Shown piece after piece: positions 29,576 through 51,598 of a stretch of DNA of 64,000 nucleotides. The DNA is from Candidatus Latescibacterota bacterium (GTDB taxonomy: Bacteria; Latescibacterota; UBA2968), in contig OZ242195.1 of the NCBI GenBank assembly GCA_965205975.1, positions 3,040,001 to 3,104,000 of the forward strand. The letters are read 5' to 3'. Positions within the stretch are counted from its first letter, which is position 1. Each line of letters opens with the position of its first letter. The translations under genes and the position numbers were made by a program. A model generated the notes under the pieces. That model was not told the origin of the DNA and searched no databases. It was given only the letters and a program-made list of their open reading frames with translations.

Positions 29576-29997
29576 TCCACTTCGTTGATCATGCGATAAA
29601 CCACATCTCCAGATTTGTTGCGATCATAAAAACTCAATGGCAACTGGATCAAGTGGTCGAAAAGATGGCTCCTTATATCCAGCATCATGCGATTGTTTAT
29701 CCAAGCAAATAGATAGTTTGAGCAAAAACCAATGATGATATTGCCGACTGTAACGCCCAGGAGCAGAAGCAAAATAAATATCAACAGCTCATAATCTTCA
29801 TTTGGAAAAACATCATCAATGATAATTTTCATGATATAGGGAAAAGCCAACGAGCTAACAGTCCCCAGGATCATGAGAACAAAAACAATGCTTTGGTGTA
29901 TCCAATAAGGTTTCAGAAATTTCAAGAAATGATAAAAGACATGTCCCTGCTTAGAGAGATTGAAAATGGCTGATATGACTGGTTGTTTGTTCTTCAT
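29576..29997 (-). pseudogene. 5' fragment of an ABC exporter (TM domain) truncated by IS256
   Basis: PYIMKIIIDDV...IRSHLFDHLIQLPLSFYDRNKSGDVVYRM; frame runs into the IS end; no NBD on either side of the IS. Confidence 0.85.
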
Positions 29998-30078
29998 ATT
30001 CACCCGTGATGTAAACAACTCAAAGTGTGCGTATGCATAAGACGCTCTTTGCTCGATAAGCTCAAGTAAACCATTCTC

Positions 30079-30192
30079 TCAAGCTCATATTCCCAAATGC
30101 TTGAGCTTTGAACTGTTGCCTGCCCGCGCCGTCGCACGGCAGGCAGGTCTGCCGCCAATATTCGACTTGCCAGGGTCTGTCGGCGGCTTTTT
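30079..30192 (+). ncRNA. Structured intergenic element, copy 1 (candidate sRNA or attenuator)
   Basis: AAGCTCA..TGAGCTT hairpin, TGCCTGCC..GGCAGGCA hairpin, GCCGCC..GGCGGC+T5; near-identical copy at 34501-34613. Confidence 0.4.
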
Positions 30193-30227
30193 ATATTTAG
30201 AAATCCGGACAAATAGATAACCGCGTA

Positions 30228-32729
30228 TCAATCCTCCCGCAGGGCATCTATTGGGCTTGCAGAGGCGACCTTCAGCGCGTGTACGAAGCCACCTAACAAG
30301 GGAAGTAGAATGCCTGCGAAAATCGCCGCTAAAATCGTCCCAACCCCAAATTGAAAACGGTAAGCAAATATCGAAAGCCACTCATCCATAAAGAAATAAG
30401 ACAGCGGTAGCGCGATAACGGCGGCTACAAACCCGGGCACTGCGTAGTTTAGCACGATCCCACTGGCTATTTTGGATGGCACAGCACCCATGACCCGTCG
30501 AATGGCAATTTCCTTTCGCCTGCGCGCCACTGCCAGAGAGATCATGCCCAGGGCACCCATTGACGCGATGAGAACAGCGCACAAAGCCGCCCCTGAGACG
30601 ATTTTGCTCCAACTGATTTCTCTGGCATAAAATTTTTGTCTTTCATCTTCTATATAAGAAAATCTCAAGGGGTGCTCTGTTTTAAGGTCTTCCCATACGC
30701 TTGTGAGATACGTACCAAAGGCTTCGGCACTGCCCTCTCGAATCCGAATCAATATCTCTGCCGAGAAGGCACGTTGCAAAGTTGCATCCGTGCCTACGGT
30801 GATGATCGTCGGTGAAACCTTATGGCTCAAGTCTCTAACGTGAAAATCCTTAACGACACCCACGATGCGACCACTGACATCACTGCCAAACACGCGCGAT
30901 CTTAACTTTTCTTCTGCTGGACTGATCACCTCTCCGATAGGGTCTGACAACCGCAGATGCTTTTGAAAGACTTCATTTACGATCACATCGCCAGGCATCG
31001 GATTGGGATACAATGATCTCCCCTGCAAGAGTTGCAACCCAACCGTCTCGAGAAAAGGCCCCTTCACTTGATAATAGGTGACCTCATCTATGAGATTACC
31101 ATGGCTATCTTTTATCAGGACTGAGTTTGACCAACCGAACGGCAAGTTCGTCCGTGCAGAGGATGCCACGAGCGGAGACGCAGATAAAGACGCTTGCAGG
31201 CGCCCCATCTCATTTTCGGTCAACCTACCCGTTTCGAGCCTGACCAGGTTCGCAGGTTCAAAGCCCGGCTCTGCCGTAAGAACAAAAAAAGTCTGTTCAA
31301 AGATGATGATCGTGCAAAAGACAAACACCAATGTCACACCCGATTGAACAGCCATCAATACCTTCAAAAAGGGACCAGACCTGACTACCTTTGCTGTTTT
31401 GCTCAAAACGATGAGGGCAGATACAGACGACATAAAGGTCGCCGGATAAATGGCTGTGCCCAGACCAATCAGACAGGCAAGCGAAAGAATAATGGTCGCG
31501 GTCTGAACGGGATCTACTAAAGACGTAAAGGGGGTCCGCAAAACACCTTCAAGAGGACTTGAAGCCAACTCTGCAACCATCAATCCAATAACACAAGCCA
31601 ACAGGCTGTATCCAAAGCATTCGACCAATAGCTGGTATCTGAGTTGCCGCTGGTTCGCACCAAAAATTTGCCTGATGCCCAATTCTTTGGTGCGTGAATT
31701 GAACCGTGCCACGTAGAGCAACACGTAATTCAGACACGCGACAGACAGAATTAGGACACTGATACCGCTGAGAATATATCCATACAAAGGGTTGGTGCCA
31801 GGACGCACACCTTGGCTGCCCCCCCCCGACCCACTATGACTATGATGGTGCAACTCTGTGATGGGTTGAAGTTTGGCCCTTAAGGTCTCCAAATCCCAGA
31901 ACGGGTTAGCGGGGTAATTTTGGATGATCCGTGTGAGCTTTCTCTCCACTTCCTTTATGTTGGCTTCGTCTGCCAGACGTATATAATGTGTGGATGTAAA
32001 ATCCCAGCCCCGTCCACCTTCTTGCTTGTCGAGAAAGGTTGACGACATACTCAAGGGCAACAGAATCTCAAAATCCAGACTTGAATTTAGGGGAGGCGTT
32101 TCCACAATGCCCTCTATTTTTACAGGGACCACTGCTTTTTTTGTCGGGTTAAAAGATAAAGACAATTTCGGAGGTGGTTGTATCCATAACACTTGACCTA
32201 CTAAATTGCCAATATTGTTGGAAAGCGTCTGAGCGAATGCGCGTGTTATTGCGACTTGCCCTGGACGTGAGAGGAATGTACCATGAATAAGCGGGAATGA
32301 AAAAATCTCCACGAAACTCCTATCTACCAACACGACCTTATCTATATCTCTCAGAAAATCTTTGTGAGTACCTACGTGCCAAATTCTCATATCAGGATGG
32401 GAAAAGGCACCAAGTATACGGGTTGTGGCCTCGATCTCAGGAATCTCGGCAGACATCGCCGATGCCAATGAAACTGGAAAACTGGTAGGCTCAGCTCCTG
32501 TGCCCGCCAGAGGACCCATACCTATTTGTCTGAACTTTGCCTTCCCAGTAATGCGGTATATGCGATGATGGTCTTTGTGGAACTTATCAAAGCTCCAATC
32601 ATACAGGACGTAAAGCACGCAAAGATAGGTGCAGGCAATCCCTATCCCCAAACCCAGCAGGTTAATGGCGGCATACGTTTTATATTTGAGAGCATTGCGA
32701 AACCAGGTTCGGAAATAATTGAAAAGCAT
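30228..32729 (-). CDS. MacB/FtsX-type duplicated-domain ABC permease (cassette A)
   Basis: INLLGLGIG, SFDKFH..IYR, RTKELGIR..GA, VGVVKDFH, RRKEIAIRRVMGA, P.DALR.E. Confidence 0.92.
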   Translation of the reverse strand: MLFNYFRTWFRNALKYKTYAAINLLGLGIGIACTYLCVLYVLYDWSFDKFHKDHHRIYRITGKAKFRQIGMGPLAGTGAEPTSFPVSLASAMSAEIPEIEATTRILGAFSHPDMRIWHVGTHKDFLRDIDKVVLVDRSFVEIFSFPLIHGTFLSRPGQVAITRAFAQTLSNNIGNLVGQVLWIQPPPKLSLSFNPTKKAVVPVKIEGIVETPPLNSSLDFEILLPLSMSSTFLDKQEGGRGWDFTSTHYIRLADEANIKEVERKLTRIIQNYPANPFWDLETLRAKLQPITELHHHSHSGSGGGSQGVRPGTNPLYGYILSGISVLILSVACLNYVLLYVARFNSRTKELGIRQIFGANQRQLRYQLLVECFGYSLLACVIGLMVAELASSPLEGVLRTPFTSLVDPVQTATIILSLACLIGLGTAIYPATFMSSVSALIVLSKTAKVVRSGPFLKVLMAVQSGVTLVFVFCTIIIFEQTFFVLTAEPGFEPANLVRLETGRLTENEMGRLQASLSASPLVASSARTNLPFGWSNSVLIKDSHGNLIDEVTYYQVKGPFLETVGLQLLQGRSLYPNPMPGDVIVNEVFQKHLRLSDPIGEVISPAEEKLRSRVFGSDVSGRIVGVVKDFHVRDLSHKVSPTIITVGTDATLQRAFSAEILIRIREGSAEAFGTYLTSVWEDLKTEHPLRFSYIEDERQKFYAREISWSKIVSGAALCAVLIASMGALGMISLAVARRRKEIAIRRVMGAVPSKIASGIVLNYAVPGFVAAVIALPLSYFFMDEWLSIFAYRFQFGVGTILAAIFAGILLPLLGGFVHALKVASASPIDALRED

Positions 32730-32779
32730 TGGTTACCCTTGGCAATCAAGAGACGCTTGATCTCAGCTAACTTTCGCCA

Positions 32780-33874
32780 TTAGCTGGTAGGGGTTTCAGG
32801 AGGGCCAATAAGACGATATACCCTGATCCTACCATTCGTATTCTCGTTATCTGTCGGAGATAAATACCTATATACAAACATCCCATAACAATTAAAAACA
32901 TCGTTTACACCCAGTTCGTTTTTTATTTTTTCTGCATAAGGCTCTCCACTCGGATCTGATAGAAGTATCAGAGCTGTGCTATTTGATGAATCATTGAATA
33001 GATATCTGAGCAACATATCTCCCGAAGATAAGAGATGCATGCCGTTCAAGCGGCTGAAATTGTGTATATCACTTGCCAATTCTTTCTGAGTTTTGCTATC
33101 GTCCATTTTAAAGCGAATAAACTTAGGCTGACTCATGGTAATGGGCTTAAGAAAACGTTGTGTTATCAAATCAATTCGCATAACCTTCTCTTCCCAGGGC
33201 AGGACAAAGTGTATGATTTTTCGCGCTTCGTCATAAGCAAGCCCTTGAAAACGCTGCAACATAAAAAATAGGTCCATGTATTGTGCATCACAGACTTTGA
33301 ACTTTACGATATCTTTACCTGTTTCAAGTGAGGTGACGCAAAGCATACCGTTTTTGTCTTTGTCAACGTAAGTATGAATAAAGTTTTGATCTTCAGAAAC
33401 CATCATGCGATTAATGAAACGTCTCTCCGGCAGTTTCAATTGTCCTAAAAATTCACCTTTGATCGAGAATCGAAGAATCTGCCCGGCTCCCGCATCGTAG
33501 ATCAGCATTTGGTCGGTATTCGGTATCATTGTTGGCTCTCGCGGTATCTTGTACTGGCCTTCCATACCCCCTCGGTTGCCGATAGACCACTTGTAGTTAC
33601 CCTCTCTGTCAAAAACTTCGACACTCCTTCTCAAGCCATCTAAAACAATGATATAGTCCTTCACAACTGTGATAGAACTTACTACCCCAAGTCCTGGCCT
33701 CATCTCCGGGAATTCGAGTGTAATCTCGTCAACCAATGAAAGTTGCGTTCCTTGCGCTTGCTTAAGGACGACCTCTTCTTGCTGGTTTTCAACAGCACTT
33801 TTTTCGCAACTTCCAAAGATAAGAAAGAAGAGTGCCATCAATCTCACAGGGGCTAATAACTTTTTTCGATTCAT
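32780..33874 (-). CDS. 6-bladed beta-propeller lipoprotein (cassette A)
   Basis: Lipobox FGS-C; VFDREGNYKWSIG.RG..EGQY..P repeat typical of NHL/6-blade propellers. Confidence 0.8.
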   Translation of the reverse strand: MNRKKLLAPVRLMALFFLIFGSCEKSAVENQQEEVVLKQAQGTQLSLVDEITLEFPEMRPGLGVVSSITVVKDYIIVLDGLRRSVEVFDREGNYKWSIGNRGGMEGQYKIPREPTMIPNTDQMLIYDAGAGQILRFSIKGEFLGQLKLPERRFINRMMVSEDQNFIHTYVDKDKNGMLCVTSLETGKDIVKFKVCDAQYMDLFFMLQRFQGLAYDEARKIIHFVLPWEEKVMRIDLITQRFLKPITMSQPKFIRFKMDDSKTQKELASDIHNFSRLNGMHLLSSGDMLLRYLFNDSSNSTALILLSDPSGEPYAEKIKNELGVNDVFNCYGMFVYRYLSPTDNENTNGRIRVYRLIGPPETPTS

Positions 33875-33940
33875 GAGGATAATCCTTTCTTATCGTTGGC
33901 TCGGTGCCCCCAGTCTGTTTACCGAGAACACCAAGCCAAT

Positions 33941-33971
33941 CTTGAGCCTATCAAGCTCGGTTGCACACTTT
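33941..33971 (+). repeat. Downstream arm of bipartite inverted repeat around peptide A
   Basis: CTTGAGCCTATCAAG-N7-GCACACTTT. Confidence 0.85.
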
Positions 33972-34211
33972 TTTCTATGATTAAGATCAGCAATTAAGAG
34001 TACACCTAAAGCTCACTCAGAAGAAAGAAGCCAGTCTAAAGTTCATAGAAAAGAAAAATGATCGAATTCACTTGAGATAGAACTTTTGCCCAGAGATGTG
34101 TGGGTATCTGTCAATCCAGGCGACTTCGATTCTTTTTATGAATTAGCAATACCTTAGACTGAATGATGGGTAGCTAAAGATGCTCTCAAGCATCAGAGAT
34201 TCCAGCGCTAA

Positions 34212-34421
34212 CTAGCCGCACGTAATAGTCTCCTCGTCATTATAGAAAATGTGAAGGCAGCTAGTATCGCACGTCACACTTCCCTCACATTGAATACAAT
34301 CAAAGTAATGTGCTCCGTAAGAGTCTGTAAACCAATAATCAAGGCGGCTTCCACTGCCCTCATATCCATAGATACGCGGAGAAGACAGCCGAGACTGCAC
34401 AGGCTTTGTCAAAGTTTTCAT
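34212..34421 (-). CDS. Putative RiPP precursor peptide A (69 aa, 5 Cys)
   Basis: AAGGAGGTGAT RBS; leader MKTLTKPV..IYGYE shared with 38481-38678; core has Cx2Cx5Cx3Cx12C. Confidence 0.88.
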   Translation of the reverse strand: MKTLTKPVQSRLSSPRIYGYEGSGSRLDYWFTDSYGAHYFDCIQCEGSVTCDTSCLHIFYNDEETITCG

Positions 34422-34453
34422 AGTATCACCTCCTTTCCTTATTGAGTCAAGTT

Positions 34454-34486
34454 AAAGTGTGCTTGCCCTTACTTGATAGGCTCAAG
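34454..34486 (-). repeat. Upstream arm of bipartite inverted repeat around peptide A
   Basis: + strand AAAGTGTGC-N9-CTTGATAGGCTCAAG. Confidence 0.85.
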
Positions 34487-34500
34487 TAAAACCATTCTCT

Positions 34501-34613
34501 CAGGCTCACATTCCCAAATGCTTGAGCTTTGAACTGTTGCCTGCCCGCGCTGTCGCACGGCAGGCAGGTCTGCCGCCAATATTCGACTTGCCAGGGTCTG
34601 TCGGCGGCTTTTT
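34501..34613 (+). ncRNA. Structured intergenic element, copy 2
   Basis: Near-identical to 30079-30192. Confidence 0.4.
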
Positions 34614-34648
34614 ATATTTAAAAATTCGGACAAATAGATAACCGCGTA

Positions 34649-37129
34649 TCAATCCTCCCGCAGGGCATCTATTGGGCTTGCAGAGGCGACCTTCAGCGCG
34701 TGTACGAAGCCACCTAACAAGGGAAGTAGAATGCCTGCGAAAATCGCCGCTAAAATCGTCCCAACCCCGAATTGAAAGCGGTAGGCAAACATCGAGAGCC
34801 AATCATCCATAAAGAAGTAGGAGAGAGGGAGTGCGATGATGGCAGCTATAAATCCGGGTAGTGCGTAGTTCAGCACAATGCCACTGGCTATTTTGGATGG
34901 CACAGCACCCATGACCCTTCGGATGGCGATTTCCTTTCGCCTGCGCGCCACTGCCAGAGAGATCATGCCCAGAGCACCCATTGACGCGATGAGAACCGTG
35001 CACAGGGCTGCGCCAGAGACGATTTTGCTCCAACTAATTTCTCTGGCATAAAATTTTTGTCTGTCATCTTCTACGAAGGAGAACCGCAACAACCCATTGA
35101 TTTTCTGGTCTTTCCAAAGCTGTTCGAGATACGGGACAAATTCATCTGCACGGCCTTCTTCGATACGAACCAATATCTCTCCTAAGCTGGCTCGTTGCAA
35201 AGTCGCATCCGTACCAACGGTGATGATGGTCGGCGCAACCGTGTGGCTCAAGTCTCTAACGTGAAAATCTTTTACCACACCCACAATGCGTCCACTGACA
35301 TCACTCCCAAACACTCGTGATCTTAACTTTTTTTCTGCTGGGCTGATCACCTCTCCAAGAGGCTCTGAAGACGTTAAGTGCTTTAGGAAGGCTTCATTCA
35401 CGATTACATCGCCAGGGATAGGGTTTGGGTATAGCGACTTTCCGTGTAAGAGTTGCAACCCAACGGTATCGAGAAAAGGCCCATCCACTTGATAATAGGT
35501 GACCTCATCAATGAGTTTGCCACTGCTGTCTTTCATCAAAACTGTGTTTGACCATCCGAAGGGCAGATTCGTCCGCACATAGAAGGTCACGAGTGGAGAG
35601 GCTGATAAAGATGCCTGCAGGCGGTTGATCTCATTTTTTTTCAAGCCATCAGTATTGAGTTTGACGAGGTTCGTCGGGTCAAAACCTGGATACGTGGTGA
35701 GGATAAAAAAAGTCTGTTCAAAGATAATAATGGTGCAAAACACGAACACCAACGTCACGCCCGATTGGACTGCCATCAATACCTTTAAGAAAGGACCAGA
35801 CCTGACAGCTTTTGAGGTCTTGCTCAAAACGCTGATGGCAGATATAGATGACATAAAGGTCACCGGATAAAGGGCTGTTCCTATCCCTATCAGACAAGCT
35901 AATATCAAGAGAATAATTGCGGTCTGAAGGGGTGCCACCGAGGACGTGAGTGGGGTCTGTAAAATACCTTCAAGGGGGGGTGATGCTAACTCTGCAACTG
36001 CCAGGCCTATGATGCAAGCCAAAATGCTGTATCCAAAGCCTTCGACCAATAGCTGGTGCGTGAGGTCCTGGCGGTTCGCGCCGAAGACTTGCCTAATGCC
36101 CAATTCTTTGGTGCGTGAATTGAACCGCGCCACGTAGAGCAACACGTAATTCAGACAAGCGACGGACAAAATTAGGATACTCATACCACCGAGAATATAT
36201 CCATATAAGGGACTGGTGATTCGACTCACACCATACACCCGCTGTCGTATCGATCCAGGATTATGGTGCATATCTGTGATGGGTTGAAGCCTGCTTTTAA
36301 AGGTATCTAAATTCCATAATGAGTTAAGAGAAGCCTGCTTTTGGATCAGTCTCGTAAGTTTTCCATCTAATGCCCCGATATCTGATCCATCTGTCAAACG
36401 GATGTAATGTGAGGATTGAAAGCGCCAGTCCCAATCTCCTTCTTCCCTGTCGAGAAAGGTTGCAGACATACTCAATGGCAAAAGTATCTCAAAATCCAGG
36501 CTCGAATTGCGGGGAGGCGTTTCCACAATACCCCCTATTTCAATAGGGGCTACTATAGGTTCCAGGTCTTTAAAGAGACTATGAGAAAATCGCAGCCATA
36601 AGACTTTGCCAATCAAACTGTCAGTATCATTGGCCAGTGTTCGAGCGAATCTGCGCGTGATCACGACTTGCTCTGGTCGAGCCAAGAAAGTTCCGCGGAT
36701 AAGCGGAAAAGAGAACATCTCCTCAAAACTTCTATCGACGAACAGTACCTTTTTGATAGGGCGCAGAAAATTTCTGTGGGTACCCACATCCCAATTCGCA
36801 AGGTCACTCGTTACGCGGGTCGTAAGTTCAATCTCTGGAAACTCGGCAGACATCATGGGTGATAGTGCAACAGGAAAAGACATTGTCTCAGTCCCTGTCC
36901 CTGCTTTAGGAGAGCTTCCTATTGTTTCGCTGTACTTTACCTTTCCTGCAACGCGATAGATGCGCTGATGGTTTTCGTGAAATCTATCAAAGCTCCAATC
37001 GTACAGGATGTATAACACACAGAGATAGCAACACGCGATCCCGATTCCCAAACCCAGCAGATTAATCGTTGCATAAGCTCTATACTTGAGGATATTGCGA
37101 AACCATGTTCGGAAATAATTGAAAAGCAT
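34649..37129 (-). CDS. MacB/FtsX-type duplicated-domain ABC permease (cassette B)
   Basis: Full-length paralog of 30228-32729 with an identical C-terminus. Confidence 0.92.
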   Translation of the reverse strand: MLFNYFRTWFRNILKYRAYATINLLGLGIGIACCYLCVLYILYDWSFDRFHENHQRIYRVAGKVKYSETIGSSPKAGTGTETMSFPVALSPMMSAEFPEIELTTRVTSDLANWDVGTHRNFLRPIKKVLFVDRSFEEMFSFPLIRGTFLARPEQVVITRRFARTLANDTDSLIGKVLWLRFSHSLFKDLEPIVAPIEIGGIVETPPRNSSLDFEILLPLSMSATFLDREEGDWDWRFQSSHYIRLTDGSDIGALDGKLTRLIQKQASLNSLWNLDTFKSRLQPITDMHHNPGSIRQRVYGVSRITSPLYGYILGGMSILILSVACLNYVLLYVARFNSRTKELGIRQVFGANRQDLTHQLLVEGFGYSILACIIGLAVAELASPPLEGILQTPLTSSVAPLQTAIILLILACLIGIGTALYPVTFMSSISAISVLSKTSKAVRSGPFLKVLMAVQSGVTLVFVFCTIIIFEQTFFILTTYPGFDPTNLVKLNTDGLKKNEINRLQASLSASPLVTFYVRTNLPFGWSNTVLMKDSSGKLIDEVTYYQVDGPFLDTVGLQLLHGKSLYPNPIPGDVIVNEAFLKHLTSSEPLGEVISPAEKKLRSRVFGSDVSGRIVGVVKDFHVRDLSHTVAPTIITVGTDATLQRASLGEILVRIEEGRADEFVPYLEQLWKDQKINGLLRFSFVEDDRQKFYAREISWSKIVSGAALCTVLIASMGALGMISLAVARRRKEIAIRRVMGAVPSKIASGIVLNYALPGFIAAIIALPLSYFFMDDWLSMFAYRFQFGVGTILAAIFAGILLPLLGGFVHALKVASASPIDALRED

Positions 37130-37179
37130 TGGTTCTCCTCAGCAATTAGAGGATGCTTGAGCACACCTCACTTTTACCA

Positions 37180-38307: not shown

Positions 38308-38374
38308 GACTTATCACCCTTTCCCTATTGTAAAATCAGTGCTCCTGTAATATTTTGAGAGCACTGAGTCAATT

Positions 38375-38404
38375 TTGAGCCTATCAAGCTTGATTGCACA
38401 CTTT
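38375..38404 (+). repeat. Downstream arm of bipartite inverted repeat around peptide B
   Basis: TTGAGCCTATCAAG-N7-GCACACTTT. Confidence 0.85.
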
Positions 38405-38480
38405 TATTTTTTACTGAACATACTTCATTATGGCAATAAAAAAGATAAAATAGAAGACAGATCTCTTTAAAAGCCAGCCC

Positions 38481-38678
38481 TTATCCCCAAGACCGAGCAC
38501 CAGGAGGAAAGCACTGCAAAACGGAACGCCAAACGAACTGGCACTCATACAAATCAACAGGGTTTCCATCTACAACGCCATCTCCAACGTCTACCCAGGC
38601 AAGTCCAACTCCAAACTCGTATCCATATATAGGCGACGCCATATTCTGAATCTTCACTGGTTTGGTCAATGTTTTCAT
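38481..38678 (-). CDS. Putative RiPP precursor peptide B (65 aa, 2 Cys)
   Basis: AAGGAGGTGAT RBS; leader MKTLTKPV..IYGYE; core unrelated to peptide A. Confidence 0.88.
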   Translation of the reverse strand: MKTLTKPVKIQNMASPIYGYEFGVGLAWVDVGDGVVDGNPVDLYECQFVWRSVLQCFPPGARSWG

Positions 38679-38710
38679 AATATCACCTCCTTTCCTTATT
38701 GCGTCAAATC

Positions 38711-42008: not shown

Positions 42009-42009
42009 A

Positions 42010-43377: not shown

Positions 43378-43516
43378 CCTGCACCCTTACCTTCCATATG
43401 TCTCACTGACCCTAATCCTGATTGATTTCCAATATTTTTAATAGCATCAAATCTATATTTACCAGATTGAATTACCATTTACCGGGCAACCCAATATCAT
43501 CTGATATCGAACAGAA

Positions 43517-44518: not shown

Positions 44519-44558
44519 CCTAAATTAGCCAAGTGATCTCTGTCCAAGTTCTATTGAT

Positions 44559-44792
44559 TTAATAGCCGTCATGTGCAAATACATACACATACCAAGAGGC
44601 CTGTTCTGGTCCTACCCCATTAGGGGGAGCTTCACAACCCCAAATTTTAGCGAGTCGAGTCACTTCTTGCTGGGCTTCCCTCTTAGAATTATAATGCGCC
44701 ACAGTCTTCCAGTTTCTGAAGGAGCGGAACCTGGAACGCCAATATCGCTTTCGCTCGTCGGGATCCATCGTAATTCCAACTCGACAGGCCAT
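44559..44792 (-). CDS. Small hypothetical protein, possibly a minimal GIY-YIG-like fold
   Basis: 77 aa filling the gap between operon genes; RVGIT.DP..R...W and SK.EA...E pattern. Confidence 0.65.
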   Translation of the reverse strand: MACRVGITMDPDERKRYWRSRFRSFRNWKTVAHYNSKREAQQEVTRLAKIWGCEAPPNGVGPEQASWYVYVFAHDGY

Positions 44793-44809
44793 CTTTATCT
44801 CTTTATGGT

Positions 44810-46240
44810 TTACGAGGTTATTTCCAGATTATATCGTCGCTGCAACAAAGACGCATCCTCTTCTGCAATCTCCATACACATCTCCATCGCCAGTTCATAG
44901 CGATAACGTGTCTGTTCACAAGCAACAGGGTTGGGGTACATCGGGTCCCCCGTCGTCGTCCGAGCATCCCAAAGACATCCACCACCACACAGATTGCGCG
45001 CCCAGCATGTCTTGCACTCTGGGCGATTATTCACATTGAACTGCGCGTCAAAATGCTGCTGCTTTTCGCGATCAATACCCACAAACACATCACCCATCTT
45101 AAACTCGGGTGCATCGGCCAGACTCGAGCAAAAATAAATTGATCCATCTGCTGCAATAGCCAGATACTGCTTACCACCCAGGCATCCATGACAGGATTTT
45201 GCGCGCGTCAGCAATTTCTGAATCCGCGGATCAAACTCTTCACTCTCTTCACCATTCAGAATAGCTTTGAGCGCACGGCGGCTCCGCCTGTAAATTTGTT
45301 GTTTCAAAACAGGTATGTGTTCTTCCCGAATGGCATAAGGCGCATCGGGGGAGACAACCGCCGGACCGATGAGCGCGTTATCAGTACCCAATGAGCGCAA
45401 ATCATCGGCAATCTCATCCTCATCCATATCATACGCTGTCATAATAGCTTGCAGGTACACGCGCTCAGGTGCCTCAGCAGTCAATTTCTGTACATTCTTT
45501 GCCACGACATCATAAGTACCAGAACCATTGTGAAACTTGCGAATACGGTCCTGTGTCTTACGTCCGCCATCCAGGCTGACTTTAATTTGAAACTTTTCAT
45601 CGATCAAGAACTGCTTCATCTCGTCGGTCAACAGCGTGCCATTGGTCACAATGCCAAAACCAACCTGCACTCCCAGGCACGCGCCCAGAGATTTGGCAAA
45701 TGGGACAAGCTCTCTCATCAATGGAAAATTCAGAAGCGGCTCCCCGCCAAAAAAATCAATCTGGCACCGCCCCAAAGCCTGAGCTTCGGTGATGATCCAG
45801 CGTATCGATTGCTCGGCAACATCGGGTTGCATCAGCATCGCCTTACCGCCATAATCCCCGCCATGTGCAAAGCAATAAGCACACTGAATATTGCATGTAT
45901 GCGAAACGTGCAGCGACACCTGCAAACGATCTGTCTGTGATACCCCACAAGCTGCCACCCCTTCTGTCGTCGGCACCTGGGACACCAGAAGCAATGCACC
46001 ATCCGCAATCAACCCCACCTGTGCCAATTCCTCAATAGCCTCGGCAATTTCCTCTGCCTCGTATTGATCGGCCAACGTCTGGACAACCTGTGAAGCAGAT
46101 AAGCCCTCGCAACATTCTAAAATTGATTTGAAAAGGGGATCCAGTTCAAAAAACAGACCTGTCTCAATCTGATAGACAATCGGCTGATTTTGCTCTTCAG
46201 TTTGAAAAAGATGTATGTCGCATTTCTGAATGCATAGCAT
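44810..46240 (-). CDS. Radical SAM/SPASM peptide maturase with N-terminal RRE (QhpD/CteB-like)
   Basis: CNIQCAYC, FFGGEPLLN, TNG, SLDG; SPASM C..G....C and CKTCWARNLCGGGC..C; N-terminal 3-strand/3-helix pattern; ATG 46240 behind GAGGAG. Confidence 0.93.
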   Translation of the reverse strand: MLCIQKCDIHLFQTEEQNQPIVYQIETGLFFELDPLFKSILECCEGLSASQVVQTLADQYEAEEIAEAIEELAQVGLIADGALLLVSQVPTTEGVAACGVSQTDRLQVSLHVSHTCNIQCAYCFAHGGDYGGKAMLMQPDVAEQSIRWIITEAQALGRCQIDFFGGEPLLNFPLMRELVPFAKSLGACLGVQVGFGIVTNGTLLTDEMKQFLIDEKFQIKVSLDGGRKTQDRIRKFHNGSGTYDVVAKNVQKLTAEAPERVYLQAIMTAYDMDEDEIADDLRSLGTDNALIGPAVVSPDAPYAIREEHIPVLKQQIYRRSRRALKAILNGEESEEFDPRIQKLLTRAKSCHGCLGGKQYLAIAADGSIYFCSSLADAPEFKMGDVFVGIDREKQQHFDAQFNVNNRPECKTCWARNLCGGGCLWDARTTTGDPMYPNPVACEQTRYRYELAMEMCMEIAEEDASLLQRRYNLEITS

Positions 46241-46268
46241 GCCAGGCACTCCTCAGAACAGATACAAT

Positions 46269-46445
46269 TTACTCAGGCTGATCAAAATTGTCCCAATCGT
46301 CATCATCAGGGAACGGCATGGGGGGAACAGTAATAGGATAAGGGGTACAGCCAACTTCAAAACTATCCGTCGTCTGATATGTGCTAATACCACCCTCTTT
46401 ATCCATTGTTCCATTGATCAAGATCAACTTGCGTCGAGTCGTCAT
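46269..46445 (-). CDS. Putative RiPP precursor peptide C (58 aa; missing from ORF track)
   Basis: MTTRRKLILINGTMDKEGGISTYQTTDSFEVGCTPYPITVPPMPFPDDDDWDNFDQPE*; AAGGAGG RBS; first gene after the sigma54 promoter, 28 bp before the rSAM. Confidence 0.85.
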   Translation of the reverse strand: MTTRRKLILINGTMDKEGGISTYQTTDSFEVGCTPYPITVPPMPFPDDDDWDNFDQPE

Positions 46446-46504
46446 ATTATCCTCCTTAAATACAAAAATCTAAATGTCGTCATTGTCTTCGCTCCGTTTA
46501 TATC

Positions 46505-46519
46505 GCAAGATCCGTGCCT
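46505..46519 (-). promoter_or_regulatory. Sigma54 (-24/-12) promoter
   Basis: AGGCACGGATCTTGC = GG-N10-GC, matching TGGCACG-N4-TTGC. Confidence 0.82.
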
Positions 46520-46624
46520 AATAATGCATTAGCATAAAAAAAAGCACTTAAAAACTCTCAAGTGCTTGAAAAAACAAGGAAATAAAATTTAAAAATTATT
46601 TGTACTGTAAATGCGGCATCCAGA

Positions 46625-46653
46625 TATATGTGTACCTAATAGATACACATATA
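46625..46653. promoter_or_regulatory. Candidate upstream activating sequence for the bEBP
   Basis: TATATGTGTA-N9-TACACATATA perfect inverted repeat about 105-135 bp upstream of the sigma54 site; related TGCATC-N5-GATACA at 46712-46728. Confidence 0.62.
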
Positions 46654-46758
46654 ACCGTTCATTTAGATAAAATATGCATAACCGATTGATTAATATAAAA
46701 ATAAATTAAAGTGCATCTAAATGATACATTATTGTAAAATGATACACCCATTCAACAT

Positions 46759-49700
46759 CTATCTCAACCCCAGACGATTCATCTTTCTATACAAGCTGGC
46801 GCGCACCAACCCCAGTTCTTCGGCCGTACGCTTAATATTACCCTCGTATTTTTCGAGCGCATCCATAATCAACCGTTTCTCATACTCCTGCATACTATCT
46901 TTTAAATGTCCCTGGTATTCGACAGAGACACCCGACATCGCGTGGCCGACAGCTTCCGAAAACAAATCGGGCGTAATTGCACCATCTTCTTCTACCAATG
47001 CAACCGCACGCCGAATCTCATTCTCCAACTCGCGCACATTACCCGGCCAGTTGTAATTTGTAAGTGCCCTGATTGCACCTACTGTCAGCCCGCCAACCGA
47101 CTTGTTTGCCTCTTCCTTTGCCCGAATGAGCAAATGTTCGGCCAATAACGGCACATCTTCCATGCGTTCTCGTAAAGGCGGCATATCGATCTGAATCACG
47201 TGCAACCGATAATACAAATCTTCGCGGAAAGAGCCTTTTTCTACTTCTTTTTTTAAGTCTCGATTGGTCGCTGCAATAATGCGTACATCTACTGCGCGAT
47301 CCTCTGTTTCTCCCACACGCCTAATCTCTCCTTCTTGCAACACCCGCAACAAACTCCTTTGCAATGGTGGCGGGGCATCGCCGATTTCATCTAAAAAGAC
47401 CGTACCCCCATTAGCCGTCTCAAAAACCCCCTTATGATCTTCAGTCGCGCCAGTAAACGCCCCTTTTTTATGACCAAACAACTCACTCTGCAACAGCTCT
47501 GGTGAAAGGGCAGCACAATTTTGCGACAAAAAACGCTGGTCTTTACGTGTACTATTGTAGTGTATGGAACGCGCAGCTAATTCTTTGCCAGTACCTGTTT
47601 TGCCTTGCACAAGCACGGGAATATCGCTTTTTGCCGCACGTTCTATAAGCCGGTAGATCGCCTGCATCGCATCACTTTGCCCAAACAGATCGCCAAGCTG
47701 GTGCTGTCTTTCGACCTCTTGCTGCAAATATCGCGCTTTCTCTTCCAATTGTTCGTACATCCTCGCATTGACCAGTGCTACACCCACCAGATTCGCAAAT
47801 GCTTGTAAAAACGTCTGGTCTGCTTCAGAAAATGCGTTGCCTATGCCGCGATGATCCACATATAGGGCACCCATTACACCTTCGCTAACATGAAATAGAG
47901 GCACACACAATACAGACCGAATGTTGTAGTCTATCACACTCTGATATTGATTTAGCCTATCGTCTGTTTGTGCATCAAGGCTCAAAACGGGTTCATTTGT
48001 TTCAATAACCCGACGAATAATACCCCCACTCAATTCTTCTGCATCATTCGATTCTAAATTGTGGTGGCGCACCACATCAACTACAAAGTCTTTTGGAGTC
48101 TCATTTTTAATCGCAACAATCACCCGCTCTGCTGAATAGACAGCCAACAAATTGCCCAAAGTTCCATCCAATAGCACCTTGACATCGTGCTCTGTTGTTA
48201 ATTCCTGGCTCATATCATAGAGCAAATTCCAACGATCAACAGACAACGCACCAACTGGAACCTCAGAACTGGATACGGTATCCTCACCGCGATGGAGCGT
48301 TGGAGCGGCATCCCTGCCGCGACCATCTTCGTCGCGAGATAATTGATTTAATAACACCTGTGTTTTCTCCAAAAAATAGGACATTTCCATTTCCTCAAAC
48401 GCCTGTTTTGCCGCTTCGAGATGTGCTTGCGCTTTTGGCATATCATCGCGCTGGAGATAAAACTCCCCAGCCATCAGCAATGCCCGCGCCCAGTGGTCGC
48501 CTTTGGATTCTCTGCGACATTCAATTGCCTGCTCAAAAGCCTCTTCAGCCTCAGCAATTCGCCCTGCCTGAGCAAAAGCCGCACCAATACCGCAATATAC
48601 CAGGGGCAATATGCCTGTGTACATACCCGATATTTGTTGCGTACCTTCTTTGGCTTTTTCAGCCCATTCAAGTGCTGTTTCACCATTTCCCATTCTCGCA
48701 GCAGCCGTTGCCGCAATTGCATAAGCGCGATAGATATAATCTTTTCGCGGTGTTTCCAAAAATCGCTCTGATGAAATCTCGGCATATTCCAATGCCTCGG
48801 CAAAATCATCGCGTTCCAGAGCCAATTCCCCAAGCCATAGGAAATTTGCTGCTTCCCAATACACACCCCCTCGCTTCTGCCACTCACCAATGACCTCATA
48901 ACAAACGGCTTCAGCACCATTGAAATCCCCCAAATAAAAATAAATTCTTTGAAGTGCATTGAGTGCCCAAACGCGATGGTGCTCTAAACCAAGTTGTCTA
49001 AAGATCTTTACAACAGTTTCTAAATAGCCCTTAGCTGTCTCAAATCGAAATTCCACTAATGCGGCCTGGCCTTCTCGTCCTTGTATAAAAGCCTGGTTTT
49101 GTGGATCTCCCGACTCACGGAGTTTCTCTATTTCCCGACGCATATACGCAATTGATTCTTCGTGCCGACCAGACACATCACACAAATAAGACAAGCTGCT
49201 TAACGCCTGAATTTCGCCATCGAAATCACCGAGTTCACGATAAAGCTGCAATGCCTCCAGCATATATCCTTCTGCAATTTCACCATGTTGAAGTACGCTG
49301 TGAATCTCACCCTGGTCGTTTAAAATACGCGCTTTCAAATCTTTCCGATCAGCGGGCAATAATGCATTTGCTTCGTCTAAAAGTTTTAGTGCGCAATTGT
49401 ATTCACTACAATTGCGAAACACATCTGCATAATCGCACAAAAAATCGATAGCATCTGCAGGTAATTCAAAAACGTCATCCGCTGTCCAGTCCCTCACTGC
49501 CTCGAACCGTCTCAATGCCTGGCGATACGCTTGTACCTCCAATGCTTTTTTACCCGCCAGACACATATATTTCACAGCCTTATCTCGTTCTTCTGCCGCC
49601 GCAAAATGATCCGCCAATTCTTCCGTCAATTCTTCTGCATCACCCGTCTCTTCCAGAGCATTGCCAATTTCTCGATGCAACAGACGCCGCCGCACATCTT

Positions 49701-50841
49701 GCATGCGGTCATAAATTGCACGCCGACACAAATCCTGTGAAAATCGATAGCGGTCTTCATCCTCTCCACAAGCAGCCAAAAGCCCTTCCGCAATCAAGTC
49801 ATCCAGCATATCCAGCAATTCTAACTCATCACCGCGCCAAACTGCAGCCAATAATTCGAAAGAAAAATCACTTAAAAAAACACAGGCGTATTCCAGCACC
49901 CGCTGTTGCATAGCAGGCAGGGTTGCTATGCGCCTGTACAAAACCTCTGAAAAGTCATTGGATAATAATGTTTCGGGAAACTCTCCCCACTGCCAATCGC
50001 CAGACACATCTTGCCGAACCACATCGGCATGCACCAGTGTCCTTATCGCCTCCACGACAAACAGGGGTTGTCCGCCTGTTTCTCTGAACAGGGTTTGCAA
50101 TGCATCCGACGGTATGGATCGCTCCCCTAACATCGACGCCGCTAAATATCCCACCTCTTCTTGTTGTAGATACTCCAACTGCATCTGGGTCGCTTCAGCA
50201 AATTCATTACTATGTATAAAATTCTCAATTTCCTCTGAAAGCGGTTCCAGATTAGACCATCGGCAAGTCAGACATAACAAAAACGGGCACGGTTCTGGAT
50301 CGCGCAACACATACTGCAAAAATTCCAGAGTCAATTCATCAAGCCATTGAATATCTTCCAAACACAACACAATGGGCTGTTTCTGTCGCAGACTTTTTAG
50401 TAACTGCAACCAGCGCTCCATAACAGAAAACTTGTCGGTCTCTAATGAATCGGGCAACTCTGCCATCAAATCCGTCGTCCCTTGAAAAGCCCTGATCAAC
50501 GCACCGTATATTTGTCCGCCCTCTTCCTGCCCTGCGCCCTTCAAACATAGAAAATCGTGGATCAGAGCGTCGCCCAACAGTTCTTCGGCCAGTCTCGATT
50601 TACCTACTCCCGCCTCACCCGAGATCAAAACCACGCGCTGCTTGCCAGCCTGTACATCCTGTAACATCGCACTCAGTATCTTCATTTCAGATTCCCGCCC
50701 GACAAATTGTGGGCGCACAACTTTTCTATGCACATCGCGCTGCTCGTCCTCCAGCAGCACAAGCTCCGATGGTAAGGCACGTACCAGTTCCTCTGCCGAC
50801 TGATAACGATCAACACGCTCCTTTGCCAGCAACTTCAGCAC
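46759..50841 (-). CDS. AAA ATPase-TPR-GAF-sigma54 activator-Fis HTH (3' part of a frameshifted kinase-bEBP fusion)
   Basis: FVGRE, GEAGVGKS, LEDIQW; TPRs; GAF SVLCVPL; GKTGTGKE, GAFTGA, FLDEI, WPGNVRELEN; C-terminal HTH. Confidence 0.92.
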   Translation of the reverse strand: MLKLLAKERVDRYQSAEELVRALPSELVLLEDEQRDVHRKVVRPQFVGRESEMKILSAMLQDVQAGKQRVVLISGEAGVGKSRLAEELLGDALIHDFLCLKGAGQEEGGQIYGALIRAFQGTTDLMAELPDSLETDKFSVMERWLQLLKSLRQKQPIVLCLEDIQWLDELTLEFLQYVLRDPEPCPFLLCLTCRWSNLEPLSEEIENFIHSNEFAEATQMQLEYLQQEEVGYLAASMLGERSIPSDALQTLFRETGGQPLFVVEAIRTLVHADVVRQDVSGDWQWGEFPETLLSNDFSEVLYRRIATLPAMQQRVLEYACVFLSDFSFELLAAVWRGDELELLDMLDDLIAEGLLAACGEDEDRYRFSQDLCRRAIYDRMQDVRRRLLHREIGNALEETGDAEELTEELADHFAAAEERDKAVKYMCLAGKKALEVQAYRQALRRFEAVRDWTADDVFELPADAIDFLCDYADVFRNCSEYNCALKLLDEANALLPADRKDLKARILNDQGEIHSVLQHGEIAEGYMLEALQLYRELGDFDGEIQALSSLSYLCDVSGRHEESIAYMRREIEKLRESGDPQNQAFIQGREGQAALVEFRFETAKGYLETVVKIFRQLGLEHHRVWALNALQRIYFYLGDFNGAEAVCYEVIGEWQKRGGVYWEAANFLWLGELALERDDFAEALEYAEISSERFLETPRKDYIYRAYAIAATAAARMGNGETALEWAEKAKEGTQQISGMYTGILPLVYCGIGAAFAQAGRIAEAEEAFEQAIECRRESKGDHWARALLMAGEFYLQRDDMPKAQAHLEAAKQAFEEMEMSYFLEKTQVLLNQLSRDEDGRGRDAAPTLHRGEDTVSSSEVPVGALSVDRWNLLYDMSQELTTEHDVKVLLDGTLGNLLAVYSAERVIVAIKNETPKDFVVDVVRHHNLESNDAEELSGGIIRRVIETNEPVLSLDAQTDDRLNQYQSVIDYNIRSVLCVPLFHVSEGVMGALYVDHRGIGNAFSEADQTFLQAFANLVGVALVNARMYEQLEEKARYLQQEVERQHQLGDLFGQSDAMQAIYRLIERAAKSDIPVLVQGKTGTGKELAARSIHYNSTRKDQRFLSQNCAALSPELLQSELFGHKKGAFTGATEDHKGVFETANGGTVFLDEIGDAPPPLQRSLLRVLQEGEIRRVGETEDRAVDVRIIAATNRDLKKEVEKGSFREDLYYRLHVIQIDMPPLRERMEDVPLLAEHLLIRAKEEANKSVGGLTVGAIRALTNYNWPGNVRELENEIRRAVALVEEDGAITPDLFSEAVGHAMSGVSVEYQGHLKDSMQEYEKRLIMDALEKYEGNIKRTAEELGLVRASLYRKMNRLGLR

Positions 50842-51598
50842 AATTTGTTGCGTCTCTTCGGGAACAGCGATATTGAACTTCGCCTATTGGTGGAGGTGAC
50901 TCTCGAATATGCTTCATAATAACAGATATGGGATTTTGTCCAGAAAAGGGCGATGCGTCCGTGAGGACTTCGTATAAAATCACACCCAATGAGTACAAAT
51001 CTGACCGATGATCCACCCACAACCCCTTACCCTGCTCTGGCGACATATATTCTGCCGTACCAATCGTTGCACCCGTCTGAGTAATGGAAGCACTGTGCAA
51101 ATGTCTGAATTTCGCCAATCCCAGGTCCAGAATCGTGGTTTCAATCCCCTCTTTTGTCTCCAAAACCATAATATTGGATGGCTTGAGATCGCGATGCACT
51201 GCACCCTGAGCGTGGACATAAGCCAATCCATCGGCAATTTGTTGTATCAAGTCAAAAAAGTGAGACGTCCGGAATTGCTCTAACAGTACACGATCGGCAA
51301 TAATTTTTTCCAATGTCTTTCCGGGCAAATATTCCATTGTAAAATAGGGACGGTCTTTGGCAAAGCCCCAGGTGTATGTGCGAACCAGACGCGGGTGCTG
51401 GAATCGGTTCAACACCTGAAACTCTCTGTGAAAACGACGGCGCACAGCCTGCTCATCCATCATTTCATTCAAAATTTTGAGCGCGCAATCCCGATCTTGC
51501 TCCAGGTCCAAAACCCGATACACTTCACCCATGCCCCCGGCTCCCAGGTGCGCCTGGATCTGGTATCTTTTGTCGAGAATTGTGCCAATTTCGAACAT
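50810..51598 (-). pseudogene. Hanks-type Ser/Thr kinase domain (5' part of the same gene; +1 frameshift near 50875)
   Basis: LGAGGMGEVY, ALK, HRDLKPSN, DLG, GTAEYMSPE; subdomain XI (KLLAKERVDRYQSA) lies in the next frame. Confidence 0.85.

Follow-up and report, generated by a model that had tools for sequence, protein, structure and literature searches.

Two adjacent and probably separable peptide-natural-product modules in a low-G+C island of a Latescibacterota genome

Overview

A run of genes in the genome of a Candidatus Latescibacterota bacterium (28295–51616, all on the minus strand) probably represents two adjacent, separable peptide-natural-product modules located in a low-G+C variable island. 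These genes lie in a stretch of 64,000 nucleotides (assembly GCA_965205975.1, contig OZ242195.1, positions 3,040,001 to 3,104,000), which is referred to as the window hereafter; positions are those of the window unless given in Mb, and every feature described is on its minus strand. The genome is of the sponge type of Latescibacterota and comprises 5.56 Mb in a single contig. Module 1 (about 46269–51616, perhaps to 44559) is composed of a sigma-54 activator, a small peptide (peptide C) and a radical S-adenosylmethionine (SAM) enzyme. Module 2 (29530–41862) contains an acyl carrier protein (ACP), a fusion of an S8 protease with a DUF1611 domain, and two cassettes, each consisting of a precursor peptide (A or B), a lipoprotein and a permease; a DUF354 protein and a nucleoside diphosphate (NDP)-sugar dehydrogenase are taken as its optional tailoring enzymes. 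The division is drawn from gene content, homology, conservation, copy numbers and gene neighbourhoods, from which we infer the chemistry and the roles of the lipoproteins and permeases.

The initial annotation had described the same genes as one sigma-54-driven system for peptides made by ribosomes and modified after translation (RiPPs), in which one maturation machinery processes several divergent cores. Its gene content was reproduced: the open reading frame (ORF) calls, together with the Pfam and NCBIfam scans of 17 ORFs, confirmed all of the listed genes and their common orientation, and the three peptides were found to be real precursor-like ORFs amid peptide-maturation (RiPP-like) genes. 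The G+C content is 41–49% across the cluster (window 28000–51000) versus 52–56% in the flanks. The low G+C content and a copy of the insertion sequence IS256 at the cluster end form a pattern that fits a variable island.

Gene neighbourhoods of the two modules

The claim of one common machinery was not borne out by the surroundings of these genes. One reason is that the trio of activator, peptide C and radical SAM enzyme occurs three times in this genome, and two of the copies have no ACP or S8-DUF1611 match beside them. Another is that a radical SAM gene was found within about 10 kb in only 8 of 77 S8-DUF1611 loci, the other 69 being without one, and that 4 of 8 close orthologous loci begin with an AraC-type regulator followed by the ACP. 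The last is that the leader of peptide C differs from the leader shared by peptides A and B.

When all cluster proteins were searched against their own genome with tblastn, the three trio copies were located at 3.09, 2.90 and 2.82 Mb, and their enzymes are 91–92% identical. Three S8-DUF1611 genes were found, at 3.08, 2.16 and 4.64 Mb; the latter two are 37–38% identical to that of the window. Each of these two is accompanied by an ACP and an ABC exporter, and no radical SAM enzyme was detected among the 29 ORFs scanned there. Their varying partners are glycosyltransferases, a BtrH_N-like protein, a GNAT protein, a CAAX protease, HlyD and AraC-type regulators, and the 2.16 Mb cluster adds five DUF5128 lipoproteins, a rhodanese and MauE.

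The public survey used one genome per species and an S8-DUF1611 alignment; it gave 221 confirmed stretches, from which 77 loci were kept. The hosts are mostly Latescibacterota, the others being KSB1, Gemmatimonadota, Melioribacteraceae (including the cultured Rosettibacter primus), Cytophagia, Marinilabiliaceae and Bacteroidetes records. Among the 77 loci, tblastn detected the ACP in 63, the ABC exporter in 63, HlyD in 38, the BtrH_N-like protein in 25, the redoxin in 24, the rhodanese in 20, the DUF5128 lipoprotein in 18, the FtsX permease in 7 and the DUF354 gene in 2 (L010 and L016). The radical SAM count was obtained by a CxxxCxxC prefilter on ORFs of at least 200 aa, followed by Pfam. Since several loci are cut by contig ends, the counts for the 77 loci are lower bounds.

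The eight close orthologous loci carry S8-DUF1611 genes that are 88–93% identical to that of the window, and only one of them (L016) has the activator, peptide C and radical SAM genes directly upstream. In L011, L014, L015 and L017, the AraC gene stands directly before the ACP gene, S8-DUF1611, redoxin, precursor, propeller and permease genes come after it, and the radical SAM module is absent; in L010, an AraC gene, a second dehydrogenase, DUF354 and the dehydrogenase precede the ACP gene. The remaining two (L012 and L013) are too short upstream to show a regulator or a radical SAM module. The two modules are also distributed differently among genomes. In the genus (21 genomes), the radical SAM type gave 34 near-full-length and 3 partial matches in 16 genomes, and S8-DUF1611 gave 43 matches in 18 genomes: one genome (G086) holds two radical SAM copies and no S8-DUF1611 match, and four (G082, G085, G087 and G090) show the reverse. 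At the phylum level (E 1e-60), the radical SAM type was found in 26 of 168 genomes and S8-DUF1611 in 83 of 168. Furthermore, about 7–9 kb of unrelated genes separate the modules in G080 and G081, namely those for a protein of about 300 aa, tyrosinase or metallo-beta-lactamase-fold proteins, a patatin, and a response-regulator/AraC gene before module 2. The gap in G080 (L115:8623–12510) holds a tyrosinase-domain protein of 635 aa and a patatin-like phospholipase.

Module 1: regulator, promoter, peptide C and the radical SAM enzyme

The regulator of module 1 is encoded by two ORFs. The N-terminal part (50810–51616, 268 aa) is a Ser/Thr protein kinase (Pkinase 156.4 bits), and the rest (46759–50841, 1360 aa) carries a STAND NTPase domain (AAA_16, 88.8 bits) and tetratricopeptide repeats (TPRs; TPR_12, 60.4 bits), with the C-terminal domains GAF (47.7 bits), Sigma54_activat (250.4 bits) and a Fis-type helix-turn-helix (HTH; HTH_8, 45.8 bits). 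Although they fall into two ORFs, the kinase and the sigma-54 enhancer-binding protein belong to a single gene, which one additional base divides. The kinase domain is completed, in the other frame, at the start of the 1360-aa ORF, and alignment to both paralogues of the same genome, which are intact (1605 and 1666 aa), places the one-base insertion at 50875–50879. In the short-read contigs of runs X1 and X2, in which 95% of the words sampled from 37100–47000 occur, one base fewer is found at 50875, 50876 or 50879, and these contigs may originate from a paralogue. The frameshift may thus be an assembly error. In another genome of the survey, G081 (L116:13678–17891), the kinase-activator gene of the neighbouring module is broken by two transposase-like ORFs, another sign that these regulators are often hit.

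The activator has the attributes of a sigma-54 enhancer-binding protein: besides its Sigma54_activat and HTH domains, GAFTGA is present in the translation and a −24/−12 promoter is located nearby. The genome encodes rpoN (DNA-binding domain 201.7 bits). A strong intrinsic-terminator-like hairpin (46542–46567; an 11-pair stem followed by T8) lies 3′ of the regulator gene. After it comes the promoter element AGGCACGGATCTTGC (46505–46519), which has one mismatch to TGGCAC-N5-TTGC and is positioned about 60 nt before the ATG of peptide C. Because matches to a loose sigma-54 pattern are not above shuffles in the window as a whole (61 versus 68 expected), the argument for this promoter rests on position and conservation. 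The element is kept in all three paralogous copies of the genome, and it stands at a near-constant distance from the radical SAM gene in 23 of the 30 related loci scanned; the 7 loci without it are the most distant ones or fragments. The sigma-54 promoter of the initial annotation is borne out in this way. A scan of the cluster found no further sigma-54 site in the intergenic DNA upstream of the ACP, peptide A or peptide B genes.

Among four paralogous or orthologous activators, the greatest divergence was found in the TPR region (72–80% identity) and the HTH (67–100%). The paralogous modules also differ in repeated motifs upstream of the promoter (L008:7570–8130, L009:10760–11330 and window 46560–46790), and these upstream repeats differ in step with the divergence of the HTH (67% versus 100% identity). 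This co-divergence suggests that the paralogues of module 1 may act as insulated circuits.

Peptide C (46269–46445) has 58 aa, one Cys and an acidic DDDDW tail, and is preceded by a strong Shine-Dalgarno sequence, AAGGAGG. It is followed by the gene for the radical SAM/SPASM enzyme (44810–46249), which carries an N-terminal PqqD-like RiPP recognition element (RRE). The scores for Radical_SAM (PF04055, 57.8 bits), SPASM (PF13186, 23.5 bits) and PqqD (PF05402, 27.5 bits) are all above the Pfam cut-offs, and the enzyme has the CxxxCxxC core. Directly upstream of nearly every radical SAM copy in the related loci, there is a peptide C homologue with a ribosome-binding site. Throughout the genus, these homologues share the start M(A/T)TRRKLxLINGxxD, one Cys and the tail VPPLPFP(D/N)DDDDWDDFD, and the five residues after the Cys vary freely. 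The homologues of a second genus have two or three Cys and a C-x-W-P-x-F-P-x-LPPP core. Peptide C is paired with the radical SAM enzyme because of this upstream adjacency in related loci, the sigma-54 element of the 23 loci and the PqqD-like RRE. It is unrelated to peptides A and B, and the leaders have no common motif. When the three peptides were compared with Pfam and NCBIfam at E values up to 10, no family was found, apart from one chance-level Pfam match for peptide A.

In the NCBIfam comparison, the best models for the radical SAM enzyme were the SCIFF maturase, QhpD, the nif11-type maturase and PapB, all far below the cut-offs. A collection of 5.8 billion proteins contains about 70 unnamed relatives at 37% identity or more; below these, the identity falls to 30–34%, and here the nearest named relatives are met, the SCIFF maturases at 30–33%. 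Judging from these family relations, the product probably contains one Cys-derived thioether ring. Since the model of the anaerobic sulfatase maturase also matches (113 bits), a formylglycine-type oxidation may be an alternative. A 77-aa protein (44559–44792) without a Pfam or NCBIfam match follows, and an 88% identical paralogue of it follows the radical SAM gene of copy 3; beyond the trio, the neighbours of module 1 vary.

As for expression, only Logan contigs were used, whose depth cannot rank genes. In the RNA-library run X23, contigs 90–99% alike were found on 44374–46374 (depth 44–150) and little elsewhere, and such an RNA library may contain DNA. Paralogue contigs pile on 44374–46374 in DNA runs too.

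Module 2: maturation genes and precursor cassettes

The ACP (41569–41862) has the conserved Ser of the LDS motif and gives weak PP-binding and ACP matches (Pfam PP-binding 17.2 bits, below the cut-off of 20.8). This Ser, the phosphopantetheine attachment site, is invariant in all 66 aligned cluster ACPs. Downstream lies the S8-DUF1611 fusion (39633–41534; Peptidase_S8 77.6 bits, DUF1611 38.7 bits). The S8 half has no signal peptide, and its residues D20, H53 and S197, assigned as the catalytic triad from the motifs DSG, GHGT and GTSFAAP, are invariant in 15 sequences. In the same sequences, the DUF1611 half invariably keeps a P-loop, GxxxxGKF-T. Its PF07755 score exceeds the gathering cut-off of 25 bits, and a model of the last 380 residues (pLDDT 90), which make up a complete DUF1611 module with the two-domain fold, matches the three solved DUF1611 structures 2G0T, 7XRJ (DgcN) and 2OBN. 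A PDB sequence search with the full-length profile gave subtilisins only among the best 60 matches listed.

Upstream of the ACP gene, the DUF354 protein (43517–44518; PF04007 41.4 bits) is glycosyltransferase-like, and the NDP-sugar dehydrogenase (42010–43377) scores 303.1 bits on TIGR03026, the cut-off of which is 189.8; both are regarded as accessory. On the other side of the fusion, a thioredoxin-fold redoxin with a CQPC motif (38767–39489; AhpC-TSA 31.8 bits, Redoxin 28.9 bits) is membrane-anchored by an N-terminal hydrophobic helix.

The two cassettes that follow are a real tandem duplication of about 4.4 kb with 72–97% DNA identity. Peptide B (38481–38678) has 65 aa and 2 Cys, with the leader MKTLTKPVK...IYGYE, and peptide A (34212–34421) has 69 aa, 5 Cys and a leader of the same type; MKTLTKPV...IYGYE is common to both, and the cores differ. 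The strict pattern MKxLxKPxK...(I/V)Y(G/L/A)YE was found in 11 of 81 loci, namely orthologous loci and the Melioribacteraceae/Bacteroidetes loci L025, L027 and L048, and the cores are hypervariable; looser relatives of the precursors occur in L005, L007 and L062. The presence of the same leader type in the orthologous loci and in L025, L027 and L048 is the basis for pairing peptides A and B with S8-DUF1611. Peptides A and B both end in Gly. C-terminal amidation was considered as a general feature and rejected: a terminal Gly was found in none of 9 orthologous precursors and only in the weaker candidates of L005 and L007. In Rosettibacter primus (L027:16315–16663), two small ORFs with Gly-Gly-type leaders and Gly/Ala-rich cores are located immediately after the MauE and thioredoxin genes of the S8-DUF1611 cluster; they look like possible precursors of class II bacteriocins.

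The lipoproteins B (37180–38307) and A (32780–33874; 60% identical to B) belong to the six-bladed propeller family DUF5128 (PF17170), with scores of 49.1 and 43.2 bits, respectively, against a gathering score of 22.9 bits; the former has a signal peptide with a conserved Cys. A structure model of lipoprotein B made from an 8-row alignment had a pLDDT of 42, too poor for a check of the fold. The permeases B (34649–37129; FtsX 82.9 bits, MacB_PCD 57.8 bits) and A (30228–32729; 73% identical to B) are of the duplicated FtsX/MacB type. Their scores for FtsX and MacB_PCD are above the Pfam cut-offs, and those for ADOP (TIGR03434) are 191.8 and 203.1 bits, the cut-off being 622.3. Lipoproteins and permeases are 60–76% identical among orthologues, compared with 88–93% for S8-DUF1611. 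Their fast evolution would be compatible with a role in recognising the hypervariable peptides. When lipoprotein B was modelled together with peptide B, the complex obtained a score of 0.56, and the best of 3 controls obtained 0.04; across the runs, the contact agreement was at least 47% and the partner pLDDT at least 36. Of 157 solved complexes, 116 reach the mark set for this score, as do 2 of 215 mismatched pairs, but only 18 of those 157 reach it at ≤0.60, together with both passing mismatches. The models thus hint, rather faintly, that lipoprotein B may bind peptide B.

The A/B-type precursor genes are bracketed by inverted repeats of about 40 nt, which consist of a 17-nt palindrome, ACTTGAGCCTATCAAGT, followed by GCACACTTT. 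The arms lie upstream (38697–38753) and downstream (38364–38420) of peptide B, and upstream (34440–34496) and downstream (33931–33987) of peptide A. This bracketing was found in both window cassettes and in 7 of 8 cassettes of the orthologous loci, and the two arms co-vary from locus to locus. The predicted arm-to-arm duplexes range from −30 to −51 kcal/mol (z −3.1 to −8.6 versus shuffles); the values are −42.0 kcal/mol (z −8.6) for peptide B and −46.5 kcal/mol (z −7.9) for peptide A. An unpaired third copy of the motif occurs upstream of the ABC gene (30016–30070), and L014 has the same position occupied. The repeats may form an RNA-processing or stabilising stem on the precursor mRNA, serve as paired operator sites, or delimit an invertible segment. 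No strand-changing joint around them is listed in the Logan contigs, which drop rare variants. The possibility that the palindrome is a genome-wide element was rejected, as with one mismatch at most it is found at 4 sites only, all in the cluster; allowing 2 mismatches adds one more site in the cluster (30052), the fifth there, and five outside it. Another intergenic repeat, about 160 bp long and containing a GC-rich hairpin, stands behind each of the two permease genes and behind the dehydrogenase gene (30069–30227, 34490–34648 and 41914–42007); its 3 copies in the genome are all inside the cluster. A search of 28000–52000 with Rfam gave one chance-level match only (Leu_leader, E 0.76), outside the genes of interest.

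Module 2 ends in an ABC exporter fragment (29530–30018), which was confirmed to be cut after about 150 residues (ABC_membrane profile positions 3–109 of 274 only) beside an IS256-family transposase gene (28295–29479; Transposase_mut 421 bits; NF033543 374.6 bits, cut-off 150). The orthologous loci continue with the ABC exporter (592 aa in L016), a rhodanese and MauE, and a search of this genome found no orthologue of the missing exporter part, of the rhodanese or of MauE. Relocation of the exporter by the insertion sequence was also considered and rejected: the best matches in the genome are 31–47% identical paralogues at 2.17 Mb. Module 2 has lost the exporter, rhodanese and MauE genes through an IS256-linked deletion, and with the split regulator, both modules look partly damaged in this copy. 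Since module 2 has no regulator of its own here, it would be expressed only by read-through from module 1. Elsewhere in the genome (4,078,359–4,079,540), another IS256 copy with 99% identity adjoins a large tandem array of FtsX/ADOP-type permease genes (4.08–4.15 Mb).

Comparison with known systems

The likenesses to the Qhp and CLI_3235 systems that had been noted in the initial annotation hold as homology (QhpE, QhpD, TIGR04066 and TIGR04068 all match) but not at the level of the curated cut-offs. Because no such cut-off is reached, neither module was assigned to the SCIFF, QhpD/E or CLI_3235 families. By analogy, the modules would work like the systems of these three families.

SCIFF systems are minimal pairs of precursor and maturase without a protease or exporter, and the precursor has six Cys in about 45 residues. 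Module 1 is likewise a minimal unit of precursor and maturase without a protease or exporter, and its enzyme scores 266.5 bits on the SCIFF maturase model (TIGR03974, cut-off 425) and 224.5 bits on PapB (cut-off 340). It differs from SCIFF in the single Cys of peptide C, the hypervariable 5-residue loop, the conserved acidic tail, the absence of an NCBIfam match for the peptide, the dedicated kinase-STAND sigma-54 activator, and the occurrence of 2–3 copies per genome. QhpD is an RRE radical SAM/SPASM enzyme that makes Cys thioethers; QhpC carries several Cys, and the Qhp cluster has dehydrogenase subunit genes. Our enzyme scores 254.7 bits on QhpD (TIGR03906, cut-off 453), and the S8 half scores 140.7 bits over the whole model of QhpE (NF049966, cut-off 165). 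The window and the Qhp system thus have in common a radical SAM/SPASM enzyme with an RRE and a small cytoplasmic subtilisin-like leader peptidase. Nevertheless, peptide C has one Cys unlike QhpC, the S8 and radical SAM genes of the window fall in different modules, and no quinohemoprotein amine dehydrogenase subunit gene was found among the 17 window proteins scanned.

The TOMM kinase/cyclase fusion regulators (TIGR03903) share with our regulator the kinase, AAA_16/STAND and TPR architecture and the position by a RiPP cluster. The kinase ORF scores 130 bits on this model and the STAND part 165 bits, far below the cut-off of 705.75, and the output differs, being a GAF, sigma-54 AAA+ and HTH activator instead of a cyclase. 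To our knowledge, DgcN (7XRJ), an N-acetyltransferase, is the only DUF1611 protein with both a solved structure and a named activity. Its fold matches that predicted for the DUF1611 half (Foldseek E 5.5e-13, TM 0.58–0.66, identity 16%); unlike DgcN, the DUF1611 module of the window is joined to a protease, and its partner is an ACP, not a free CoA thioester. The cassettes recall the LanI lipoprotein with LanFEG in lantibiotic clusters and the MacAB-type export of Cys-rich peptides. As with LanI/LanFEG, a lipoprotein and a membrane permease are encoded beside a putatively secreted peptide, and the permease weakly matches the darobactin exporter permease DarB (82.9 bits). However, the cassettes have no ATPase or adaptor gene, and their lipoprotein, a DUF5128 propeller, has no relation to LanI.

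The closest analogue in print is the Firmicute CLI_3235/SacP23 type. According to the part of the report that describes it, the SacP23 cluster of Paenibacillus polymyxa #23 encodes a TIGR04068 radical SAM enzyme, TIGR04066, an ACP-related TIGR04069 protein, a subtilase and an ABC transporter; for the ACP-like and TIGR04066 proteins, that part offers no more than guesses at a role (PMC10731318). As far as that description goes, the gene set of a Cys-rich precursor, subtilase, DUF1611-like protein, carrier protein and ABC exporter is common to this type and module 2 (PMC10731318). In the scan for the CLI_3235 models that the initial annotation had suggested, TIGR04066 matched the DUF1611 half (residues 272–520, E 1.5e-35; 122.9 bits, cut-off 200), with the L027 homologue scoring 82.4 bits, and TIGR04068 (CcpM) matched the radical SAM enzyme (165.8 bits, cut-off 500), both below the cut-offs; TIGR04069 (ACP) and TIGR04065 (peptides) were not listed at E values up to 10, where the HMMER filters may drop the weakest matches. 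Differences were also evident: protease and DUF1611 module are fused in the window, most S8-DUF1611 loci have no radical SAM enzyme, the host phyla differ, and module 2 adds the redoxin, rhodanese, MauE, DUF5128 lipoproteins and FtsX permeases.

Apart from this analogue, the statement that no such system has been described agrees with the literature searched (supplements aside), which contained no description of the S8-DUF1611 fusion, of DUF5128 cassettes, or of such a regulator with a radical SAM peptide. Searches on DUF1611, DUF5128/NVEALA/BF3164 and Latescibacter with ranthipeptide gave nothing beyond antiSMASH class labels; in the part of the study concerned, the labels ‘ranthipeptide’ and ‘RRE’ are reported for metagenome-assembled genomes of sponge Latescibacterota (PMC12993501).

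Proposed mechanism and alternative explanations

The two-module arrangement would function as follows. In module 1, the cytoplasmic Ser/Thr-kinase/STAND/TPR/GAF activator would turn on the sigma-54 promoter, which would drive peptide C and the RRE radical SAM/SPASM enzyme. The enzyme would bind the conserved leader RRKLxLINGxxD and introduce a single crosslink at the one conserved Cys. This would most likely be a thioether bond with the carbon of a side chain close by, and the result would be a small ring over the five hypervariable residues before the VPPLPFP-DDDDW tail. In module 2, each precursor has the leader MKxLTKPxK...IYGYE and a hypervariable core that contains Cys, and the S8 half of the fusion enzyme would cut this leader off in the cytoplasm. 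The DgcN-like DUF1611 half and holo-ACP might then move the ACP-bound acyl group onto the peptide, a step that we consider conceivable but rather doubtful. The ABC exporter would carry the peptide out, and the membrane redoxin would make the disulfides, presumably assisted in intact relatives by the rhodanese and MauE. Finally, the DUF5128 lipoprotein and FtsX permease of each cassette would recognise their own peptide, for self-protection or onward export.

The observations that weigh against this division are best considered together with the integrated pathway, in which the radical SAM enzyme crosslinks all three peptides, S8 removes the leaders and the cassettes provide immunity, all under the sigma-54 promoter. 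In 6 genomes from 2 genera, the two modules lie next to each other, which makes a regulatory or functional link possible. The distances are 3.3 kb in G000, 4.2 kb in G089, 10.9 kb in G081 and 13.1 kb in G080, and the modules lie within 15 kb for 4 of 23 radical SAM copies in 10 genus genomes of one to five contigs. For a few loci over 5–6 Mb, such proximity is far above chance, but the genomes are kin, and the independent proximity events number only two or three. In the second genus (G052 and G053), the modules are about 6 kb apart with a rearranged gene order: L062 and L064 read activator, peptide, radical SAM enzyme, DUF5128 protein, precursor (leader MNLLRKP...IYAYE), redoxin, ABC, rhodanese, S8-DUF1611 and ACP, with no AraC gene between. 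AraC is likewise absent from the window and L016. The genes of the window are co-oriented, and with no terminator-like site between the radical SAM and ACP genes and gaps of 17–147 nt, co-transcription by read-through from the sigma-54 promoter is possible. The radical SAM enzyme is encoded somewhere in each of the 7 genus genomes that carry the orthologous S8-DUF1611 type, an observation given little weight because 15 of the 20 other genus genomes have it anyway; it is possible that the enzyme acts on module 2 in trans. Moreover, a radical SAM enzyme accompanies a Cys-rich precursor, an ACP and a subtilase/TIGR04066-like protein in L025, L027, L048 and, in the part of its report describing the cluster, the Firmicute CLI_3235/SacP23 analogue. 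In these three loci, the A/B-type precursor is directly followed by the radical SAM gene, but that enzyme is only 23% identical to that of the window. The absence of an ATPase gene beside the FtsX permeases of the cassettes also counts against our proposal. Set against the integrated pathway are the leaders of peptides C and A/B, which share no motif, the 69 S8-DUF1611 loci without a radical SAM gene, the 2 of 3 radical SAM modules in this genome that are far from any S8-DUF1611 gene, and the genomes that hold only one module. Considering all these points, we judge the integrated pathway unlikely.

A slightly less probable explanation is that module 1 is a peptide-signal circuit, in which the TPR/STAND part of the activator would sense the crosslinked peptide C and bring about autoinduction via sigma-54. 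In clostridia, a connection of SCIFF-type ranthipeptides with quorum sensing has been reported, and the TPRs of RRNPP receptors are what binds their peptides. The conserved unit is exactly activator, promoter, peptide and maturase, with no protease, exporter or immunity gene; a genome has 2–3 such paralogous circuits, whose peptides differ chiefly in the five residues that follow the Cys, and the TPR and HTH regions of the activator diverge most, in step with the upstream DNA. The S8-DUF1611 clusters have either module 1 or an AraC-type regulator just upstream, and an extended form, to which we assign the same low probability, holds that insulated kinase-fused sigma-54 circuits, each with its own peptide variant, would replace AraC upstream of S8-DUF1611/ACP, as in the window and the second genus, and control ACP-acylated, disulfide-bonded peptides. 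However, genes for export or import are missing from the module, the activators differ only modestly in their TPRs, and most copies of module 1 are away from module 2. That no peptide system exists at all, the small ORFs having arisen by chance among genes for envelope or polysaccharide functions, is very improbable. The lack of a curated family for the three peptides and the presence of glycosyltransferases in several related clusters would fit it, but the orthologous loci retain the small ORFs, whose leaders are conserved, whose cores vary and whose ribosome-binding sites are strong; an RRE radical SAM enzyme and a QhpE-like leader-peptidase domain are typical of peptide maturation, and ABC exporters are found at 63 of the 77 loci. 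The two-module division is therefore retained as the preferred reading.

Implications

Automated cluster callers would fuse the two systems, and the assignment of precursors to enzymes matters for expression work. The radical SAM module is a minimal pair of substrate and enzyme with a single Cys and an unusual kinase-STAND sigma-54 regulator. Both modules are large and conserved groups, S8-DUF1611/ACP being found in about half of the Latescibacterota genomes searched (83 of 168) and in several other lineages. If the DgcN-like half couples leader removal to carrier-dependent acyl transfer, module 2 would represent a new route to lipidated or acylated ribosomal peptides.

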